64,000 nt of DNA from contig CALWYZ010000009.1 of NCBI GenBank assembly GCA_944385895.1, positions 1,859 to 65,858 on the forward strand, in the 5' to 3' direction. The position numbers and the translations under genes were made by a program. The notes below the pieces were generated by a model. The model had not been told where the DNA came from and searched no databases. It saw only the letters and a list, made by a program, of their open reading frames with translations. Positions 9,238-18,313 of this stretch are shown here, in pieces. How positions within the stretch are numbered: the first letter of the stretch is position 1; every line of letters begins with the position of its first letter. Source of the DNA: an uncultured Clostridia bacterium. Lineage in GTDB: Bacteria; Bacillota; Clostridia; Oscillospirales; QAKW01.

Positions 9238-9852
9238 ATGTTTATTATATCAAGAGTAATAATAGGATTCATTTTCTTTGCATGTATGATTATTTTAATA
9301 AAAAAACTTAAATTTGAGCATAAGCTTAAAGGATATGTTTTTTCTGTAATTTTATCGGTAATATTAATTACCGTTATTGCATTTTTACCTTTTGAGAATT
9401 TTTTTATTACGTTTGATTCTCCACAATCAGTTTACAACTATATGAATTTTGGTAAATCTAATGTTAAGTTAGTTATAAACGGTAAAAACAGTGATTTTGT
9501 AATTAACGATAAAATAAACTCATACTCTTATTTAATCGTTCCAAAATACAAAGATGGTTGGAAAATCGGATTAGGTGCTGATACTAAAATGATTATGCAA
9601 AAAATATATGATGATATTATTATAAACGTATTTCAATATAAAAACACTAATGATTATTTTATTGTATTATTAAATACTAATGGAGGCCCAATAAATTTAA
9701 AAGACAGTAATAATTCAAAATTTTATTCATTAGAAAAAACAAATAATCAACTTAATAAAGTTTTTATTACATATTTTCTTAATATATCTAATTTTGATTC
9801 TAAATATTGGTTAAGCATAAATGATAAAAAAATCTGTTTGCTAAATGATTAG
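9238..9852 (+). CDS. Candidate immunity protein for CT4 (polytopic N-terminus)
   Basis: Has its own RBS (TAGGAG), lies 22 nt after the CT4 stop, and has two N-terminal TM helices. Confidence 0.5.
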   Translation: MFIISRVIIGFIFFACMIILIKKLKFEHKLKGYVFSVILSVILITVIAFLPFENFFITFDSPQSVYNYMNFGKSNVKLVINGKNSDFVINDKINSYSYLIVPKYKDGWKIGLGADTKMIMQKIYDDIIINVFQYKNTNDYFIVLLNTNGGPINLKDSNNSKFYSLEKTNNQLNKVFITYFLNISNFDSKYWLSINDKKICLLND

Positions 9853-9912
9853 CTTATTTAGTATATTAGATATATAGCAAAAATAATTTAACCAAAAAGT
9901 TGATATCTGCAC

Positions 9913-10767
9913 ATGGCACTGGCAGATATAACAAACGGTTATTTGGGAGATCAGCTAACATATACTTATTCAGCATACGGAAAGAATTATACTTTGGATA
10001 TATCAGGAGATTTATTGTCTGCTGTAGGCAGCCTTAATTCCATCTTATTCAAAGGGTATATGTATGACAGAGACCTTGAGATGTACTATTGCGGCTCTCG
10101 CTGGTATGACCCTGAAATCTGCAGGTTTATAAACGGGGACAGCTATGTTTCTACTGGACAGGGACTTATTGGCTATAACATGTTTGTCTACTGCGGAAAT
10201 AATCCGGTAAACAGAGTTGATCCTGAAGGTGAGTTTTGGATCCCAGCGCTTGTACTTGCCATCGGCAGTCTTTTATTATTTTCAAGCTGTTCAACAAACG
10301 ATAACGAGTTTAAGTCAGCAGACGAAGCCGCTAAGGATTTTGCAAAAAAGACTTATAGTGCAACTGAATATACAATGCATGAGTATTCTACGGAAATTTA
10401 CACTACTAATAACGGTAAAACATATAAGTATACCGAACCGGCAATAGGAAGTCCACATCAAGCTACAGGATTTGACCTTAATCATGTACCTGAAGGCGGA
10501 ACTACTGTTGCCTATGCTCATACTCATCCTAATTATAATGGTTTTTCAGATGGAGATATAGAAACTGCCAATCATTTTAATATAGATGCGTATGTAATAA
10601 GTCCTAATCATGAATTGTTAAGGTATATTAAAGGTTCTACTGATTATGGAGGTCAATTCATTTCCTCCATAGAACCGGATCCGTTGACCTCAGCACAAAA
10701 ACAACAATTAAATCCCTGGAGAATCGCATGGGATGAACACATAGCCGAGTGTGATAAATGCAATTAG
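9913..10767 (+). CDS. Orphan rhs toxin tip CT5 with a JAB/MPN-like (DUF4329-like) C-terminal domain
   Basis: It has the longest 5' homology to the main rhs (ALADITNGY...YYCGSRWYDPEICRFINGD). The tip ends ...NNPVNRVDPEGEFW. The C-terminal domain contains AHTHPNYNGFSDGD (10519-10557). Confidence 0.7.
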   Translation: MALADITNGYLGDQLTYTYSAYGKNYTLDISGDLLSAVGSLNSILFKGYMYDRDLEMYYCGSRWYDPEICRFINGDSYVSTGQGLIGYNMFVYCGNNPVNRVDPEGEFWIPALVLAIGSLLLFSSCSTNDNEFKSADEAAKDFAKKTYSATEYTMHEYSTEIYTTNNGKTYKYTEPAIGSPHQATGFDLNHVPEGGTTVAYAHTHPNYNGFSDGDIETANHFNIDAYVISPNHELLRYIKGSTDYGGQFISSIEPDPLTSAQKQQLNPWRIAWDEHIAECDKCN

Positions 10768-10780
10768 GAGGAAATACATT

Positions 10781-11227
10781 ATGATCAAAAAAATACACGC
10801 AGCATTAATTATTTTTATACTTTTGCTTATTCTCTCCTCATGTAATAGGAATATTACAATTACAACTACCGACGTAGAGAAAGAATCCGATATAAATGAA
10901 GTCTGTATAGAAAAAGGTGTAAAACAGTGGGAGGATATTGGAAAAACGGTGGAATATTCATGCGTTGCTGATGAAGAAACCGCCATAAAAATTGCAGATG
11001 CAATAACATCACAATTACAAAAGCAGGGGTATTTTGATGATATTTTCTCTGATGGACTTTTATATCTCAGCAATGCTTTTTTCAACATCGAAGATAAAGT
11101 GTGGATCATGACCTACGGATCATACAAGCTTGATGATTCCGGTAATAAAGTTCCTATTCCCGGCTCGGATTTTTGTATGGCGATAAGTGAAGATGACGGC
11201 AGAGTATTACGTATGTGGTTTTATTAA
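10781..11227 (+). CDS. Lipoprotein, candidate immunity protein for CT5
   Basis: AGGAGG RBS. Signal peptide with lipobox-like ILSSC. Starts 14 nt after the CT5 stop. Confidence 0.5.
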   Translation: MIKKIHAALIIFILLLILSSCNRNITITTTDVEKESDINEVCIEKGVKQWEDIGKTVEYSCVADEETAIKIADAITSQLQKQGYFDDIFSDGLLYLSNAFFNIEDKVWIMTYGSYKLDDSGNKVPIPGSDFCMAISEDDGRVLRMWFY

Positions 11228-11237
11228 GGAGATACAA

Positions 11238-11810
11238 ATGCGTTGTAAATTATATATTATTTTGGGGTCCGTTTTATTTGCTATTATATTGATAATAATT
11301 TCTTTGTATTTCATTATAAAGATTAATGAAAAATATGATACACCGGAAAAATCATTTTTAAACAGCGCTCCGAACAATTCGTCATTAATAAAAATAATTG
11401 ACGAAGATAACGCAAGCATATTGGTTTACAAATCTAAAAACGGCGAATATTTATGCGACACAATATACAAAACTGACGACGGATGGTCATCAATCAAGCT
11501 GAGCCGTATTGACAGCACACGTTGTTCATTAAGTAAATACAAAAATGATACTACATCTTATATTGATGTAATGTATACCAATAATAAATACTTTATAACG
11601 GTATGCTATCAATCATACAAGTACAAGACGTATTATAATTCAGCTACAATAACAGACAGCATAAATTCCGATTTTAAAGCATTTTCCGTCTTTGACAGCT
11701 ATGAAGAGCGAAACGGTATAATAATATTTTACCTTGTATTGGATGAAATTCCGAATGATTATTATATTCTGTCCGGCGGTAAAATGATAAATATTGATCT
11801 TGAGACCTGA
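11238..11810 (+). CDS. Membrane-anchored hypothetical protein (second immunity-like ORF)
   Basis: AAGGAG RBS, N-terminal TM helix, no recognisable domain. Confidence 0.45.
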   Translation: MRCKLYIILGSVLFAIILIIISLYFIIKINEKYDTPEKSFLNSAPNNSSLIKIIDEDNASILVYKSKNGEYLCDTIYKTDDGWSSIKLSRIDSTRCSLSKYKNDTTSYIDVMYTNNKYFITVCYQSYKYKTYYNSATITDSINSDFKAFSVFDSYEERNGIIIFYLVLDEIPNDYYILSGGKMINIDLET

Positions 11811-11831
11811 AACAATCAGCAGATTTTTATC

Positions 11832-12985
11832 ATTCAACTGAGGTGGTATTTCTATGAAAAAATGGATGATCATAACACTGTCAATTACATATGCCATTGT
11901 ATTAAACGGTACTGTAATATTTCTGATACTCAACAGTAATCACCGGTATTGCAAAAAGCTTGTTAGTGCTATATACGATCATGATATTAAAAAAATAGAA
12001 CAGATATTAGAAAAAAAGCCCGGTTGTGTTAATACCTATCCTAACATTTTGCCCGATTCAATCACCTCTATTATAGAGGCTACTTCAAATTATCCTTTAA
12101 CGATTGCATGTAGACTGGGATACATGGATGTTGTGAAATTATTGGTTGAAGCGGGAGCTGATGTTAATAATTATAAAGACGGTCACGCTACAGCGCTTTC
12201 AGCAGCATATAATACTCTATCAGAAGATTGGTATGAAATATCTTTGTATCTGATAGAAAACGGAGCATCACTTGACTACGATACAGTTCATCATGGAGGA
12301 GTATTAGAAGATATTGTAAGCAGGCATCCGGGAGAGGATTCCCCAGGTGGTGCAGAAAAGGTATATAAATCATTTTTATATGCTTTTGAGCACTGCGACA
12401 AAAGCTTGATAGATTGGGACAGAGTTTTATTTGATAGTATTACATATAACTTAACAGTCGTTGTAGAATTCCTATTAGATAACCAATACTGCGGTGTAAA
12501 CAGTTATTTATCCACATCCTATACACCACTTATGAGAGCGGTAGAATATGAAAGGACTGATATAATACAGCTGCTGCTTGACAGAGGTGCTGACAAAACA
12601 ATGAAGAACGACGAAGGGAAAACAGCATACGATATTGCAATGGAAGAAGGCCATACCGATATCGCACAGATGGTCAAACCGTAAATAGATTTAACAATTT
12701 TAATGACATCTTTTTTATATCAAACAGATGCAAAATCAATTATTCCCTACTCTTATATAAGCAGACATATATAAGTCAATGCTTCCAAAATGGACAATCC
12801 ATTAATGACACATAACAGAAATACGTTTGATTTTGAGATGCAGTATTGCACCTCTGCTGATATGACCCTGTAATCTGCAGGTTTATAAACGGGGACAGCT
12901 ATGTTTCTACTGGACAGGGACTTATTGGCAAAACATGTTTGCCTACTGCGGAAATATTCCGGTAAACAGAGTTGATCCTGAAGGT
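11832..12985 (+). repeat. Second copy of the 1.1-kb ankyrin-immunity/linker/tip block
   Basis: See 4326-5470. Only about 10 nt of the CT1 3' end (ttcaactga) precede the immunity gene here. Confidence 0.8.
11854..12684 (+). CDS. Ankyrin-repeat immunity paralog with no cognate toxin upstream (orphan immunity)
   Basis: Collinear and highly similar to 4348-5172 along its whole length, with the same RBS context. Confidence 0.7.
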   Translation: MKKWMIITLSITYAIVLNGTVIFLILNSNHRYCKKLVSAIYDHDIKKIEQILEKKPGCVNTYPNILPDSITSIIEATSNYPLTIACRLGYMDVVKLLVEAGADVNNYKDGHATALSAAYNTLSEDWYEISLYLIENGASLDYDTVHHGGVLEDIVSRHPGEDSPGGAEKVYKSFLYAFEHCDKSLIDWDRVLFDSITYNLTVVVEFLLDNQYCGVNSYLSTSYTPLMRAVEYERTDIIQLLLDRGADKTMKNDEGKTAYDIAMEEGHTDIAQMVKP

Positions 12986-13462
12986 GAGTTTTGGATAGCT
13001 GCTATAGCAATAGTAACAACAGCTTTAGTGTTATTTAATCATGTAGTCAATAAAATTAATTTTAATAAAATTAGAGATGAAGTTTTAGATCAAAGATCTA
13101 TTTCAGAAGCAACACAAGAAATAAATAATATCTTGGAAAAATATAATAGTGAATTTGAATCTGAATCAAATAAAGCTATAGTGTCTGAAAAAGACTTTAC
13201 TGAATCATCTATTAAAATCCAGAACTCATATAAAGTTACTTCAAAATATGACAGACAATATATATGTGAAATAATTGCGCACACAGAATCAGTTAATACT
13301 GATTCATCTAAAATTGCAACTGAATGGTATTTACATAATTTAGCTTATAATTTGAATATTTTGCCTTCAAGCAGCAAAGACGCAGACTTGGATTTTTATG
13401 GAGATAAAAGAAAGTTAGTAGAATACAGTGGGCTAATTTTAAGAATATTTGGAGTAAGGTAA
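12935..13462 (+). CDS. Orphan rhs toxin tip CT6 (5' tip region degenerate)
   Basis: MFAYCGNIPVNRVDPEGEFW, then a TM helix and a roughly 140-aa unassigned domain. The upstream tip copy is out of frame (ggcaaaacatg versus ggctataacatg). Confidence 0.55.
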   Translation: MFAYCGNIPVNRVDPEGEFWIAAIAIVTTALVLFNHVVNKINFNKIRDEVLDQRSISEATQEINNILEKYNSEFESESNKAIVSEKDFTESSIKIQNSYKVTSKYDRQYICEIIAHTESVNTDSSKIATEWYLHNLAYNLNILPSSSKDADLDFYGDKRKLVEYSGLILRIFGVR

Positions 13463-13463
13463 A

Positions 13464-14381
13464 ATGAATAAAAAAATTTTCTACGCTATTATTCTGTCAG
13501 TATTACTGTTGGCGATTCTGAATTTGATTTTTATAACGGTATTTATTCTGTCTTTTCGATTAGATGATATAAAAAACACTAAAACAGATGAGTTTATGCA
13601 ATCTGTTAAAAGCGAGACAGATTCTCATATATCTTACGTTTTGTACGATAATTTATATTACAACGGTAAAATATATGATGGATACCAAAATTCATGTACA
13701 TTTGCTGTTGTAGACGATTACTCATATAGCCTTATAAAGACAAATGAAGGCTGTGAATACGGCAAAGAAGAATGGAAACTTGAGCGTCGCAGCTTGTCTG
13801 ATAAAACTAAAAAGATATTATATAATGATATTTTTAATAATTACTACAATAAATATTCTGAGTCCGATTGGGCGGTTCAAGATGTATACTATTACGACGG
13901 TAAAATAGTAATAAATGATTTAGAAAAAGTTGTTGAGTACAACTTGTCAACTGAAGTATTTAAAACATACAGCTATGCTGATTACAATTTCCCTATTGGT
14001 ATTTCTGTTGAAGCGGTAGACAAAAATACATTGAAATTTACAAAGAATGGTCAAACAAAGGAGTTAAAACTTGATAATGCATTAAATCAAAGTAAATCCT
14101 TAAAAACTATTTTTGATGAATTCAATAAGGAAAATACTTGGGACAAAAAGTCAAAGGTCAGAAATATACTTGCTTATACAGATTTAAACGATACTGTTTA
14201 CTATCCTTGGGTTGAAGTTAACTCTAATAAATGTTATATATTTGGTACGGTTTATAACAGAGAGGGTTGGCAATGGTGCGTTTTAACAGAATATGATTTT
14301 GAATCAAATTCCGTTAAATTTGTAGACACTATATATACTGGTGACACTATAACTGATATTTATTTTGTATATACAGATTAA
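13464..14381 (+). CDS. Candidate immunity protein for CT6 (N-terminal TM anchor)
   Basis: ATG lies 1 nt after the CT6 stop, with GGAG upstream. 305 aa with an N-terminal TM helix. Confidence 0.5.
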   Translation: MNKKIFYAIILSVLLLAILNLIFITVFILSFRLDDIKNTKTDEFMQSVKSETDSHISYVLYDNLYYNGKIYDGYQNSCTFAVVDDYSYSLIKTNEGCEYGKEEWKLERRSLSDKTKKILYNDIFNNYYNKYSESDWAVQDVYYYDGKIVINDLEKVVEYNLSTEVFKTYSYADYNFPIGISVEAVDKNTLKFTKNGQTKELKLDNALNQSKSLKTIFDEFNKENTWDKKSKVRNILAYTDLNDTVYYPWVEVNSNKCYIFGTVYNREGWQWCVLTEYDFESNSVKFVDTIYTGDTITDIYFVYTD

Positions 14382-14455
14382 GTGCAATAAATTATAACTA
14401 TTGTTTTATATAATACATTTTAATTGACAAGTAAAATAGCTTATAAATCAACCGG

Positions 14456-14634
14456 TATGCTCCTGTAATCTGCAGGTTTATAAACGGGGACAGCTATGTT
14501 TCTGGAAGGCTCAGGGACTTATTGGCAAAACATGTTTGCCTACTGCAAAAATAATCCGGAAAACAAGTTGATCATGAAGGTGAGTTTTGGATCCCAGCGC
14601 TTGTACTTGCCATCGGCAGCCTTTTATTATTTTT
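14456..14634 (+). pseudogene. Terminal degenerate rhs tip remnant
   Basis: Homologous to the CT5 region 10125-10283 (..gagttttggatcccagcgcttgtacttgccatcggcag..) but with multiple indels and no ORF. Confidence 0.6.
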
Positions 14635-14877
14635 AAGTTTTTTAAAAAATGACAATAAATATAAATCAGCGTATATATATTTGCTAATTTTTGCCATCGA
14701 TATTTGTGCATGATGTATAATTATTTTGATTTTTATATCTATCTATTGACATATATTGCATATTATTATATTGTATATAAGAAAGGAGGTTACCGTTATG
14801 AAATCTATATGATCAAATTGCGCAGCTGTGCATTGAGAGTTACCACTCACAGACTCAGCTAAGAAAGGAGATATAAT

Positions 14878-15876
14878 ATGCAAAAGTTAATATCTGTTTT
14901 ATGCGTTATTTTACTTTTTACATCTGTGTTTATGGCAATGCCGATCTATGCATCAGCAAACGATTACCAAGATAACCTGAACAGCTATGCATATCAAGAC
15001 ATTGATTCTGGTGACTGGTTTTACGAAGCGGCGGTACGTGCAAAGGAGCTGAACATAATGACCGGCATGTCCCAAAAAAATTTTGAGCCGGACACGCTTG
15101 TCACGCGCGAGATGTTCCTGACAGCACTCGAGCGAATGAAAATACATAATGGCATCAGTTTTAGTACGTTTTCCGCTTTCAGTGATATAAAAGAAGACAA
15201 ATATTACACAAAAGCTGTCAAATGGGCTGAATATAACGGCATTACAAAAGGTATTTCAGCCTCAGAGTTTGGGATTGGGCTGAACGTCACGCGTCAGCAA
15301 ATTGTAACATTTATTTACAGATATCTGCAGGACGGATATATCAAAATCAATTTGAAGCCGGCACAATCCCCTGCTGCGGAATTTTTCGACAGGCCTTCGG
15401 AATACGCAAAAGAAGCTGTCGATTATATGCGAAGCACAGGAATAATCGATGGCATGGGTGACGGTAAATTTGAGCCTGACGCACCAGCTACCCGGGCACA
15501 AATTGCGGCAATGCTTGTCAGGCTGTACGATGCAATGCGGAATGCTGACTTTGAATTCAATATAAGCCCGGATATTTCAAAAATCGAGGTCGTACATCAA
15601 ATACTGGATCCGCTCACCGGCCAGATACCGAAATCGAGATTTATAACGGACAGCTCTGAAATAGCAGATATTATAAATCAAATAAACAGCACTCATATAA
15701 CAAGCGGTACAGATATCGAGCTCACTGTCGGATGGGAATATGTGGCACGTTTCTCTGATAAACAGGGTAAAATTGTTTTTGCTGTCATGTTTACCGAAAG
15801 TTATATAAAAGAATCGAATTTTAGGTTCGAAACTAATGCATTTGAAAGATTTATAACATTTATAAATAATAATTAA
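14878..15876 (+). CDS. SLH (S-layer homology) domain protein
   Basis: Signal peptide. SLH-like repeats (DWFYEAAVRAKELNIMTG, YYTKAVKWAEYNGITKG, YAKEAVDYMRSTGIIDGMGDGKFEPD). Confidence 0.75.
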   Translation: MQKLISVLCVILLFTSVFMAMPIYASANDYQDNLNSYAYQDIDSGDWFYEAAVRAKELNIMTGMSQKNFEPDTLVTREMFLTALERMKIHNGISFSTFSAFSDIKEDKYYTKAVKWAEYNGITKGISASEFGIGLNVTRQQIVTFIYRYLQDGYIKINLKPAQSPAAEFFDRPSEYAKEAVDYMRSTGIIDGMGDGKFEPDAPATRAQIAAMLVRLYDAMRNADFEFNISPDISKIEVVHQILDPLTGQIPKSRFITDSSEIADIINQINSTHITSGTDIELTVGWEYVARFSDKQGKIVFAVMFTESYIKESNFRFETNAFERFITFINNN

Positions 15877-15936: not shown

Positions 15937-16202
15937 AATGCAAAAAATAATTTTTGACCAAAATAAATATGGCATCACACCTTAAACAAAAACTTAATAG
16001 GTATCTGCTATCATCGTGGGCATCTTGATTGAATAAAAAACAAAATCTATAAATTTAAATTGCATATCGAGGTTCTCTCTGTAAGCAGGGAAAAAAGATT
16101 TCCGACTAGCTGTCAAATATTAAAGCAAAAAATAACGCTGAACCCAAAACAACGGGTCCAGCGTCACGCTGTCTATGGGCTACAAAAAAGATATTGTCGG
16201 CA

Positions 16203-16229
16203 TTTTTGCATATGAATTCGAACTCTTAC
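16203..16229 (+). repeat. Left copy of a 27-bp direct repeat, tttttgcRtatgaattcgaactcttac
   Basis: Matches 18787-18813 at 26 of 27 positions. Confidence 0.85.
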
Positions 16230-16288
16230 GTTTCTCATGACCCTGACAAAACTAAACAGTTTAAAAGACGATAACCGATTATTGGTAA

Positions 16289-16729
16289 TTATAACTGTTG
16301 CATCATTGCTGAGATTGTTTGCTTCGCTATTCCAATAGCAATATCATGGGCTAAGCTTTCAAGGAAATGAAGAGTGTGATTACCAACTTTATTTGCAATA
16401 GATTTGGTTTTCTCCCATACAGTAGGTTCTTTAATGGTTTCGGCAAATTGATGTCCTTTCATTGTTACATCCATTATTACACAATCGTTTATGTATGTTG
16501 CCTCTTTATCTTTAGGCTGCTCGCATGATGTTTTTATGTATTCAGATTCTTTTAATTTTAAAACAGAATACATTATGTCCTTCTTTTGAAATTGCTGTAA
16601 TTCATTTGATTCATACATTTCTTTCAGCTCTATGATTTCACATTTCCAAATATATCCGGTTTCGGTATAATCAAGATTTTTGATACAATATAAAAGTACC
16701 GCTCTTAAACAATCTATGTTGATTCTCAT
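16289..16729 (-). CDS. YjcQ/DUF2513-like winged-helix protein
   Basis: The N-terminus MRINIDCLRAVLLYCIKNLD...IMYSVLKLKESEYIK resembles the YjcQ family by recollection. Not verified by a search. Confidence 0.45.
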   Translation of the reverse strand: MRINIDCLRAVLLYCIKNLDYTETGYIWKCEIIELKEMYESNELQQFQKKDIMYSVLKLKESEYIKTSCEQPKDKEATYINDCVIMDVTMKGHQFAETIKEPTVWEKTKSIANKVGNHTLHFLESLAHDIAIGIAKQTISAMMQQL

Positions 16730-16771
16730 ATTATCGTTCCTTTCCTTCTTTTTAATGAAGATAATTTCTGT

Positions 16772-18151
16772 TTATTTCAAATAGTATTTGTTCATATTCC
16801 CGCTTTTTTGCTTAACTGCATCCGATATTTTTTTCTTTATTAATTCTATTGAAATATCTTCCCAGTAATTCACATAAATCAAAATTATTCCATTTTCTTC
16901 GCTCAACCTTTTTTTTAATACATCCCTTCCTCTTTGTTCTTCAAAATGTTCTTTTCCTCCAAAATAGTCGATAGGCTCAAAGTGTTGCTTACCTTGATAT
17001 TCAAAAGCGATTTTTTCTCCATAAACAAAAACGTCGTAAGACATCTGCCCTTTTTTTGTGTGTAAAAAATACGGCCTATGTTGATGAACGACCTCGTTCT
17101 TCGAAAAAACTTTTTTAACGCACTCATACATTAATTCTTCAGATTTCCATCTGCTTTCAGTTCTTATATATTCCGTTGGTTGCAAACACTTTTGTAAATA
17201 CTTTGCTATGTTGTTTAAGATATCTTCATACTTTTCTGGAAAGAAATCTGCTTTTTGATAATCAATAAATGTCCAATATTTTATACAATTACTGGGAATA
17301 AATCTTGGGTGTAAATTATGGTCTTTTTGGGGATTAGTTTTCCGTTCCATGTAATATTGATAAAGCTTACATAATAAAAGTTCGTCGAATTCACTTATGT
17401 TGTTGTATGCTAAAAACTCAGGAAACCTATCCGATTTTTCTAATAAATCTTTTCTTACTTGTGGTTTGCCGTCAATAAACTCAAAAGCCATATACACTTG
17501 TCTTGTATTCTTCTCCATATCAGAAATGGCATTTAATATATATCGTGTTACATAAGGAGATGTTGTACTGTCAACTGCATATGCGTGTTTCCCATTGCAG
17601 GTAAGTTCAAAAATAATAAATGTATGCGGCATTCCTTTCCAATTATCAACTCTATTTTTTAATTCTAAAAAAGGAAAAGCATCTGAAACTGCATAAAAGT
17701 TTGTTTTTAAATGATCAAGCTTACCTGCGTTAAACTCTTCCTCTTCAAGCAAATTCAAACTTCTTATAGGTTTATCAATATTCGCGTTGAAAAACTTGTA
17801 TATATAAGGAGCATACAAAGCATCTTTACCGAAAATCGCTTTTCTTAGTTTTGTGGCATTAATTTTGAAAAGCTCGTTATAAGTTAACTCTTCAATAACC
17901 AGTATATGTCCTGTCAACGTGCTAAATCTTCCGTAATTATTTTTTGAGTAATAATCCACATCATCATCAGTTAGGTCAATTATTTTTTTAATAGCAAAAT
18001 AAACAACAAAGCAATCTTCAATAACATATACTCTCGCATACTCACTCATATCGTAACAAATGAAAGTATATTTATCAAAGAACATTTCAAATACTTTTGA
18101 TGACTTTTGATAAAATGCTGATAAATCATTGTAAAAATCCTTAAGATTCAT
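16772..18151 (-). CDS. 459-aa protein: unknown N-terminal region plus a C-terminal PD-(D/E)xK-type (Vsr/DUF559-like) endonuclease motif
   Basis: The C-terminal SYDVFVYGEKIAFEYQGKQHF...GRDVLKKRL...GIILIYV resembles the D...(I/V)E.(D/Q)G..H core of Vsr/DUF559-type nucleases. Confidence 0.45.
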   Translation of the reverse strand: MNLKDFYNDLSAFYQKSSKVFEMFFDKYTFICYDMSEYARVYVIEDCFVVYFAIKKIIDLTDDDVDYYSKNNYGRFSTLTGHILVIEELTYNELFKINATKLRKAIFGKDALYAPYIYKFFNANIDKPIRSLNLLEEEEFNAGKLDHLKTNFYAVSDAFPFLELKNRVDNWKGMPHTFIIFELTCNGKHAYAVDSTTSPYVTRYILNAISDMEKNTRQVYMAFEFIDGKPQVRKDLLEKSDRFPEFLAYNNISEFDELLLCKLYQYYMERKTNPQKDHNLHPRFIPSNCIKYWTFIDYQKADFFPEKYEDILNNIAKYLQKCLQPTEYIRTESRWKSEELMYECVKKVFSKNEVVHQHRPYFLHTKKGQMSYDVFVYGEKIAFEYQGKQHFEPIDYFGGKEHFEEQRGRDVLKKRLSEENGIILIYVNYWEDISIELIKKKISDAVKQKSGNMNKYYLK

Positions 18152-18313
18152 ATTATTACCTCATATGCCAATCATATCAACATAATTAAGAAATTATCTG
18201 ATAGAGTTATTACTAATCGTTTATATTATCATATCATATTTTTTCATTTCTTTCAATTCCTACAGAAAATGTCGTAAAATTGTTTCAATGCATTCAATAT
18301 AGGAGTTTAAAAT

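Follow-up and report, generated by a model that had tools for sequence, protein, structure and literature searches.

Among the described nucleases with Vsr-like domains, AbaSI and PvuRts1I reportedly employ such domains as defence effectors. The Vsr, EDxHD, DUF559 and DUF2726 families have been placed together in group 58 of the PD-(D/E)xK superfamily (Steczkiewicz et al., PMC3424549). The Vsr-like catalytic positions and the roles of their residues were set out in the work on the homing endonuclease I-Bth0305I (PMC3239194), and a Vsr-like domain has been presented as a defence effector in the type III-B CoCoNuT system, in a paper that also discusses nucleases able to degrade RNA (PMC11090510). 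Here, these systems are compared with a gene for a 459-amino-acid (aa) protein in a 64,000-nucleotide stretch of DNA from an uncultured Clostridia bacterium (contig CALWYZ010000009.1; the whole stretch is referred to as the window). The C-terminal ~120 residues of this protein are shown, on alignment and predicted structure, to be a Vsr/EDxHD-type member of the restriction-endonuclease (PD-(D/E)xK) fold, and they are preceded by a long orphan module. With a probability of roughly 0.45, the gene is read as a solitary DNA endonuclease that travels as accessory cargo on the mobile elements of gut Firmicutes and has a role in conflict or defence.

The open reading frame (ORF) at 16772-18151 is a real gene and not a chance ORF, because it has at least 269 homologues, agrees exactly with a public protein, and is preceded by a promoter and a Shine-Dalgarno site (Table 1). 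The homologues were found at E<=1e-3 in a collection of 5.8 billion proteins. Most of them cover 90-100% of the length, and all are without a name and without a precomputed Pfam domain. The public protein (P0256) is present, exact, in NCBI, ENA and Logan assemblies. The position, minus strand and ATG start of the ORF are exactly as described in the initial annotation, and the C-terminal peptide quoted there (...SEELMYECVKKVF...MSYDVFVYGEKIAFEYQGKQHFEPIDYFGG...GRDVLKKRLSEENGIILIYVNYWE) is found in the translation. Scans of the whole protein against Pfam, PADLOC and NCBIfam yielded nothing even at E<=1, and a search of PDB sequences with the whole protein gave no match.

All PHROGs matches are confined to residues 329-455, with E-values from 1.5e-22 to 1.4e-8. 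They comprise three families of unknown function (1.5e-22 to 8e-17) and three labelled 'HNH endonuclease', 'homing endonuclease' and 'intron encoded nuclease' (2.7e-15 to 1.4e-8). In the family alignment of 49 sequences, which was used both for conservation and as the input of AlphaFold2, the last ~120 residues are extremely conserved. The invariant positions are W335, Q357, P360, S371-Y-D373, E384-Y-Q-G-K-Q-H390, E392, F397-G398, R409-D410, K413 and S417, and E338 is conserved in at least 90% of the sequences. The active site of this C-terminal module (C-module) is thus apparently intact, judged by residue conservation.

AlphaFold2 modelled the whole protein with a mean predicted local distance difference test score (pLDDT) of 89.2 and a predicted template modelling score (pTM) of 0.79; the modelling target was the cluster representative P0001, which differs from the protein of the window by one residue, L60P. 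The pTM suggests that the arrangement of the domains in the model is fixed. In the C-module, where the local pLDDT is ~88-95, DSSP assigns a helix (337-348), three strands (354-358, 372-376 and 381-386), a helix (399-419), a strand (423-428) and a last helix (435-449), and the predicted alpha-beta-beta-beta-alpha-beta topology is that of the restriction-endonuclease-fold core. The model places E338 on helix 1, D373 on strand 2, E384-x-Q386 on strand 3, H390 just past strand 3, and R409-D410-x-x-K413 on helix 2. Against BFVD, a collection of predicted viral structures with automatic names, Foldseek gave 77 matches at E<=1e-3 (best 1.2e-7, probability 1.0). All are restricted to the nuclease domain of ~125 residues, with ~125-140 columns each, template modelling (TM) scores of up to 0.76 on the target and ~0.22 on the query, and root-mean-square deviations of 3.5-4.4 A. 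The names of the matched proteins include restriction endonuclease or enzyme, homing endonuclease, DUF2726, DUF559 and treble-clef zinc-finger protein; Enterococcus phage EFP01 and Bacillus phages Eldridge and Bobb are among the sources of the homing endonucleases. The top fold match in the PDB, the Bax1 nuclease (E=2.6e-3, 383 columns, deviation 25 A), was rejected as a full-length relative; it vanished when the N-terminal module was searched alone and is therefore uninformative about that module.

A Vsr/DUF559-type restriction-endonuclease fold had been proposed for the C-terminus from its letters, and the core topology of the model and the 77 BFVD matches bear this out; comparisons with solved structures and with E. 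coli Vsr itself fell short of significance. The proposal had been staked on similarity to PD-(D/E)xK nucleases in structure and on conservation of the acidic residues. The first is present (best BFVD E-value 1.2e-7), and D373 and E384, together with H390 and D410, are invariant both in the 49 sequences and in a broader set of 21. The E-x-Q-G-x-x-H layout that had drawn attention corresponds to the E-x-D-G-x-x-H of DUF559, one phage relative having D at the position of the Q.

Sequence searches connect the same module to phage and intron endonucleases. When 50,697 phage genomes were searched by tblastn, the C-module alone was found, in 184 records with the whole protein as query and in 472 with the C-terminal domain. 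The matches include group-I-intron ORFs within the terL genes of Staphylococcus phages (Terranova, the 'intron-encoded protein B' of Twort, and I-MsaI of MSA6), of which Terranova_079 is annotated as a 'group I intron-associated VSR homing endonuclease'. In Bacillus phage BSP12 the related ORF BSP12_042 splits terL, and in phages of S. thermophilus a related ORF abuts terL. The profile of the family C-module scores 60-72 bits on Terranova_079, BSP12_042 and P7151 gp04. The ORFs in the phage terL introns carry three treble-clef zinc-finger repeats followed by ...LSYDFYLP...ILIEYQGIQHYQPV...FGGE...RDE.K. In the broader alignment, whose 21 sequences represent the family, the phage ORFs and distant bacterial members from eight phyla, D373, E384, G387, Q389, H390, G398-G399, D410 and K413 are still invariant and E338 is nearly so, and one phage member with D at position 386 yields the DUF559-type motif. 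The C-module is thereby shown to be the catalytic domain also used by group-I-intron homing endonucleases in phage terminase genes, and homology to the phage ORFs annotated as VSR homing endonucleases is clear.

The catalytic positions of the family were assigned from the residue roles given for I-Bth0305I (PMC3239194). Residues E25, D51, F62, H64, H69 and D97 of Vsr correspond to E170, D196, a conserved acidic residue, N208, H213 and D222 of I-Bth0305I, and to E338, D373, E384, Q386, H390 and D410 of the family, respectively. The spacing from D to H is 17 in the family, equal to that from D196 to H213. Against PDB sequences, a narrow profile of the C-terminal domain found nothing, and the broad profile had a single weak match (E=3.8), to I-Bth0305I (3R3P), in which R-D410-x-x-K falls on K-D222-K-x-K; the crystallised 3R3P construct carries D196A/H213A and so lacks two catalytic residues. 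With these results and a non-significant profile alignment to E. coli Vsr, the name 'Vsr' was dropped as a designation by sequence. The gathering thresholds of the Pfam models DUF2726 (PF10881), DUF559 (PF04480) and Vsr (PF03852) were not reached, and the 459-aa protein matched none of them at E<=1. DUF2726 was touched below threshold by 19 of the 49 relatives (best E=0.003), and a distant relative of the C-domain reached ~17 bits against a cut-off of 24.7. The C-module belongs to a sub-family of the Vsr/EDxHD/DUF559/DUF2726 clade that lies outside every Pfam model.

Residues 1-330 form the N-terminal module (N-module), which can be aligned throughout the family. The initial annotation had been unable to place the first ~340 residues, and wider searches leave them in the same position: Pfam, PADLOC and NCBIfam are empty at E<=1, PHROGs matches only 329-455, and the fold search is empty despite a confident model. 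Modelled alone, the N-module has a pLDDT of 88.1 and a pTM of 0.80, and Foldseek against the PDB gave no significant match (best E=0.14, probability <=0.23, TM <=0.18, mostly ribosomal uS3). Thus Pfam, PHROGs, PADLOC, NCBIfam and the PDB all lack a match to it. Pfam likewise gave no NUMOD, helix-turn-helix (HTH) or zinc-finger match in the protein or in the 49 relatives. Three candidate identities were set aside. The recurrent weak matches to uS3 and USP (E 0.1-1, probability <0.25, TM <0.2) were taken as noise, a PRMT1 beta-barrel segment from a PDB profile search (E=0.11) was unsupported by the fold search, and a degenerate second nuclease received a probability of 0.06% when the N and C profiles were aligned by hhalign.

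A profile of the N-module detected 204 proteins at E<=1e-3 among 1.84 billion representatives, and it is a rare, autonomous module. Its commonest architecture is N-module plus nuclease (390-475 aa). A long form of 545-615 aa has an extension of ~190 aa, which in some members starts with a zinc ribbon, ahead of N-module and nuclease. The N-module also occurs at the C-terminus of TPR-containing proteins of ~780 aa that have no nuclease, precedes a KTSC or CutA1 domain, follows a CpXC zinc module, or stands alone; P0153, P0177, P0182, P0148, P0173, P0234 and P0226 are examples without nuclease. In the long and TPR forms, a further unassigned domain of ~130 aa (...KWKSF...) was observed ahead of the N-module. 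The mean pairwise identity is 26% in the N-module versus 61% in the nuclease, and the N-module alignment holds no conserved 7-10-mer. The combination of a fast-evolving part, which would act in specificity or sensing, with a conserved catalytic part would be the usual pattern of conflict systems.

The gene is carried alone on mobile DNA. When the flanking ORFs of 49 genome loci were clustered, no conserved neighbour was found, with two exceptions: closely related streptococci share their gene order, and nine of the loci have recombinases at a distance of no more than 4 kb. Relatives are located in a prophage between integrase/DUF5067 and the Cro-like repressor, beside a cI-like repressor, or between the late activator and HNH/terS/terL. 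Relatives are also found, co-oriented, within gene strings of type IV secretion systems (T4SS), either between a surface protein and the VirD4/TraG coupling protein or before VirB4. Further relatives lie in an islet flanked by PIN/Phd genes and insertion sequences, or in serine-recombinase elements. The contigs that share the cassette of the window in identical form have AbiEii, a type I restriction-modification system, an OLD nuclease, DpnII and AlwI systems, and TnpV nearby. The hosts are mostly gut Clostridia known from metagenome-assembled genomes; Streptococcus suis, S. oralis, S. cristatus, Romboutsia, Eggerthellaceae and Gastranaerophilales are also represented. In IMG/VR, about a dozen of the best 80 matches are full-length, and the N-module is carried by no isolated phage (50,697 genomes) and by no plasmid searched.

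Several further features of these loci were observed. In genomes of the Streptococcus mitis group (L073, L075, L076 and L078-L081) the gene occupies one fixed place in the chromosome, in the company of era, fpg, coaE, RNase R and smpB, and smpB is also close by at the Clostridiales locus L025. Macro-domain genes directly adjoin the distant members P0056 and P0032 (L012/L013 4583-5758; L015 4903-5661), an adjacency that may be accidental or may reflect a functional connection, for example through ADP-ribose signalling. At locus L104, the long-form member is directly followed downstream (9828-12221) by a gene for a protein of 797 aa in which nine DUF4379 treble-clef zinc-finger repeats surround a central nuclease of the Vsr/DUF559 type (IEYDGAYYH...ERD). 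This serine-recombinase element thereby holds two nucleases of the same clade side by side with different targeting modules.

The reading as a conflict or defence nuclease is considered the most likely because the gene is accompanied by neither a methyltransferase nor an immunity partner and occupies accessory slots of prophages, conjugative elements, and defence or toxin-antitoxin islands. It is also favoured because the insertion sites are many and unrelated and the N-module has diverged rapidly. The functional reading, whether as a defence effector or as a homing-type gene, is drawn from context. By analogy with Vsr and I-Bth0305I, the enzyme would hydrolyse DNA in a Mg2+-dependent manner, with the metal bound by D373 and E384 and with H390 as the general base. 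The 330-residue N-module would supply the choice of target by binding a DNA feature, either a sequence or a modification; alternatively, it would sense the invader and then release the nuclease. The protein may be pictured as a restriction-like (type IV-like) or abortive nuclease that would protect the host, or the element itself, from incoming phages and rival elements. With neither methyltransferase nor immunity partner, the DNA of the host would be spared in one of three ways: modified or foreign DNA would be recognised, as in type IV systems, a very long site would be recognised, as in homing, or the enzyme would be inactive until triggered, as in abortive infection.

Several findings weigh against this reading. 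Association with defence islands was observed in a handful of contigs, and the nearest characterised relatives of the nuclease are homing endonucleases and not defence enzymes. The PADLOC-DB v2 models (E<=1) matched neither the 459-aa protein nor its two neighbours in the cassette. The Foldseek matches of the nuclease to solved structures are sub-significant (R2 restriction-like endonuclease domain, E=0.15; AbaSI, 0.31; PvuRts1I, 0.44), and the hhalign comparison with E. coli Vsr is weak (E=0.043, probability 1%), with R-D410 placed on E-R-D97 of Vsr. In the Foldseek search against the PDB, the N-module showed no similarity to SRA, EVE, winged HTH or other known reader folds, and its charge is not consistently positive, as would be expected of a DNA binder, the isoelectric points being uninformative at 4.9 to 9.1.

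A more far-reaching proposal can be made, and it is regarded as somewhat doubtful. The N-module may have a new fold and serve to sense invaders or to read DNA, and together with the Vsr-like nuclease it may form an unrecognised single-gene anti-phage or anti-plasmid defence family, spread by prophages, integrative and conjugative elements (ICEs) and tRNA-linked islands in human and animal gut Firmicutes, with the sensor re-used with TPR, KTSC, CutA1 and CpXC outputs.

The main rival, which is thought unlikely, regards the gene as a free-standing selfish endonuclease of the homing type. The N-module would read one long site, alleles without the cassette would be cut, and repair would copy the cassette in; an identical cassette would therefore appear in different places. 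The 2.6-kb cassette stands in three or more flank contexts with 99.9% identity. Endonucleases at phage terL, both intron-encoded and free-standing, have the C-module as their catalytic domain, the domain order, with a DNA-binding N-terminus and a Vsr-like C-terminus, parallels that of I-Bth0305I, and one phage-borne member stands directly ahead of the HNH/terS/terL block, a classical slot of homing endonuclease genes. However, the full-length family is absent from the isolated phage genomes, in which the C-module alone occurs, and its members are neither within introns or inteins nor between split conserved genes. The insertion sites are diverse (tRNA-Leu, the tRNA-Pro side, the lacZ side, the smpB region and T4SS operons) and do not amount to one cognate site, and NUMOD, zinc-finger and HTH motifs are missing from the N-module. 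The two further genes of the cassette and its tRNA-like repeats suggest recombinase-mediated island traffic instead.

It is improbable that the gene is a housekeeping nuclease of the element that carries it, serving DNA processing in conjugation, excision or packaging of prophages, or entry exclusion, with the N-module docking to partners from the element. The co-orientation of the gene within T4SS gene strings, its place beside phage packaging genes and the nearby recombinases of nine loci fit such a role, but neither a conserved partner nor a fixed position was found in any element type, and the gene also exists in chromosomal islets that have no conjugation or phage genes. Moreover, core functions of elements are usually conserved and syntenic, whereas the nuclease gene is patchy. 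Finally, a protein that is no DNase, in which the Vsr-like module acts on RNA or merely binds nucleic acid as part of a regulator or RNA-targeting toxin, is highly improbable: Q386 stands where canonical enzymes carry K and DUF559 carries D, and the Vsr-like fold is said, in the title of a paper on FASTKD4 (PMC11879112), to be an RNA-binding or RNA-processing module, and nucleases able to degrade RNA are discussed in PMC11090510, but the remaining catalytic positions are all invariant, the active I-Bth0305I has Asn (N208) at the position of Q386, BglII uses E-x-Q, and homologues with E-Y-Q-G-x-Q-H occupy intron homing positions that require DNA cleavage.

In the window, the gene lies in a cassette of low GC content (32% versus 41% in the backbone), and the features of the region are collected in Table 1. 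By blastn, 16170-18786 is 99.9% identical to five contigs (L001-L005) with different flanks, and 16167-19047 matches a sixth, L006. The DUF2513 gene starts 42 nt past the stop codon of the nuclease gene and has its own ribosome-binding site. The two genes have a single terminator (16167-16132) and are probably co-transcribed in this cassette. Every flank context supplies its own terminator hairpin just beyond the left boundary of the cassette. The divergent 97-aa HTH ORF is found in all six contigs that carry the cassette. Neither it nor the DUF2513 gene was retained as an obligate partner or immunity gene, as they accompany the near-identical cassette only and not the 76%-identical or more distant relatives. 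In L006 (11423-11863), the DUF2513 gene is split into ORFs of 45 and 94 aa and the nuclease gene is intact.

Table 1. Position and basis of the features of the nuclease gene and its cassette in the window
Feature	Position	Strand	Basis or remark
Whole gene, 459-aa ORF	16772..18151	-	ATG start, six-frame listing; sequence equals public protein P0256
N-terminal orphan module, residues 1-330	17162..18151	-	Motifs vYvIED46, EE88LtyN, LP160xLxLxER167xxxW171xG173, YE182L
C-terminal Vsr/EDxHD/DUF559-type PD-(D/E)xK nuclease module (predicted), residues ~333-450	16802..17155	-	PHROGs, BFVD fold matches, conservation, phage-endonuclease profile matches, tblastn
Candidate catalytic set of the nuclease module	E338, D373, E384, Q386, H390, D410, K413		Conservation
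Promoter-like site TTGAAA-17-TATGAT, TG extended -10, sigma-70-like	18228..18256	-	~77 nt upstream of ATG; consensus match only
Shine-Dalgarno GAGG	18159..18162	-	7 nt before ATG, read from sequence
Low-GC cassette, 2.6 kb, three genes	16170..18786		blastn, GC
DUF2513 gene, 146 aa	16289..16729	-	Pfam PF10711 3e-17, phrog_585 1e-24
Terminator-like hairpin, 15-bp stem and T-run	16132..16167	-	After DUF2513 gene, just beyond cassette edge
Divergent 97-aa HTH ORF	18314..18607	+	IS3 OrfA-like / terminase-small-like HTH, sub-threshold
Left 27-nt direct repeat TTTTTGCRTATGAATTCGAACTCTTAC	16203..16229	+	Repeat search, 0 expected by chance
Right 27-nt direct repeat	18787..18813	+	Occupies place of tRNA-Leu 3' end of other contigs
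tRNA-Pro(cgg)	19045-19121	-	~230 nt beyond right repeat

In L001-L005 the shared block starts exactly at the 3' end of tRNA-Leu(tag), with which the 27-nt repeat aligns (L001 9284-9367), and the repeat is possibly a decayed att-type tRNA remnant. The pattern of the cassette looks like tRNA-linked island traffic, and no recombinase or integrase was found within the cassette. Additionally, a Gut-1 RNA (Rfam RF01706) was detected in the window at 18935-19011 on the minus strand (90.4 bits, E=2.5e-18), and a weaker inverted copy at 18829-18916 on the plus strand reached 42.7 bits, under the gathering score of 50. Both copies are situated between the right repeat and tRNA-Pro, where GTGAAAT/ATTTCAC repeats spaced by small hairpins can be seen by eye; this segment is common to L006 and the window and is not in L001-L005. 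To the left of the cassette, a low-GC segment (11854-15876) holds four ORFs: an ankyrin-repeat-like ORF recognised by eye only (11854-12684), an ORF with an RHS/YD-core-end-like start (...NRVDPEGE) and then a possible toxin tip (12935-13462), an unknown 305-aa ORF, and an SLH-domain protein (14878-15876, Pfam 3e-25). These ORFs and the cassette make up a variable island of ~13 kb beside tRNA-Pro.

The assignment of the nuclease domain is in itself ordinary and does not overturn current understanding. The N-module is a true orphan, and in gut Firmicutes the family may constitute a single-gene defence system absent from the catalogues. If the reading as a conflict or defence nuclease is true, gut Clostridia and streptococci have an uncatalogued family of one-gene nucleases; most discovery screens have relied on E. 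coli and Bacillus systems, which has left the defence repertoires of these groups poorly charted. One Vsr-type module is common to intron homing endonucleases, giant-virus zinc-finger nucleases and bacterial island genes. This module is small (~120 aa) and separable, and such small separable domains were proposed for engineered nucleases by the authors of the I-Bth0305I study (PMC3239194). The N-module, confidently predicted, without a known relative and present in several architectures, offers a clean target for structural work.

Compared with known systems, the family resembles the Vsr-like EDxHD homing endonucleases in its C-module, which reads ...SYD...EYQGxQH..P...FGG...RDxxK and has the profile matches of 60-72 bits to phage ORFs; the homing set compared consists of I-Bth0305I (PDB 3R3P) and of group-I-intron ORFs (Terranova_079, I-MsaI and BSP12_042) in the terL genes of Twort-like and Kay-like Staphylococcus phages and SPO1-like Bacillus phages. 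The catalytic positions E, D, acidic, H and D and the distance from D to H agree with those of I-Bth0305I, and both have a targeting N-terminus, predicted in the present case, followed by a Vsr-like C-terminus. However, the targeting part is here an orphan of 330 aa, whereas theirs consists of NUMOD/HTH or treble-clef zinc-finger repeats. The gene lies outside introns and inteins in a tRNA-linked island cassette, with relatives at many unrelated sites, and the carriers of the family are not lytic phages, as for the phage homing endonucleases, but prophages, ICEs and islands in gut Clostridia and streptococci.

With the DUF559/DUF2726/Vsr clade, the family shares the fold, the strand-3 motif E-x-(D/Q)-G-x-x-H and the helix-2 R-D motif; it differs from Vsr in having no Vsr zinc site and from DUF559 in having Q386 in place of D. 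Like the modification-dependent (type IV) restriction enzymes PvuRts1I and AbaSI, which Foldseek matches weakly with the nuclease part (E 0.3-0.4), it is solitary, has no methyltransferase, and joins a Vsr-like nuclease to a separate domain, a DNA reader in theirs. The domain order is reversed in comparison with these enzymes, and their reader is SRA-like, whereas the N-module matches no SRA or other PDB fold. The giant-virus and phage proteins with DUF4379 (treble-clef zinc finger) and a restriction-endonuclease-like domain are similar in the nuclease module and are among the top BFVD matches, but they use arrays of zinc-finger repeats for targeting and their nuclease motif is of the D type. 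The protein would operate as a bipartite Vsr-type endonuclease, in the manner of I-Bth0305I and AbaSI. On the sequence and model features compared, it cannot be filed in the family of either I-Bth0305I or AbaSI, because an intron or intein context, a NUMOD/HTH region and an SRA reader are all lacking, no Pfam threshold is reached, and PADLOC gives no match. It combines a nuclease of a known clade with an undescribed N-module, and it belongs to an unnamed family of about 200 clusters.

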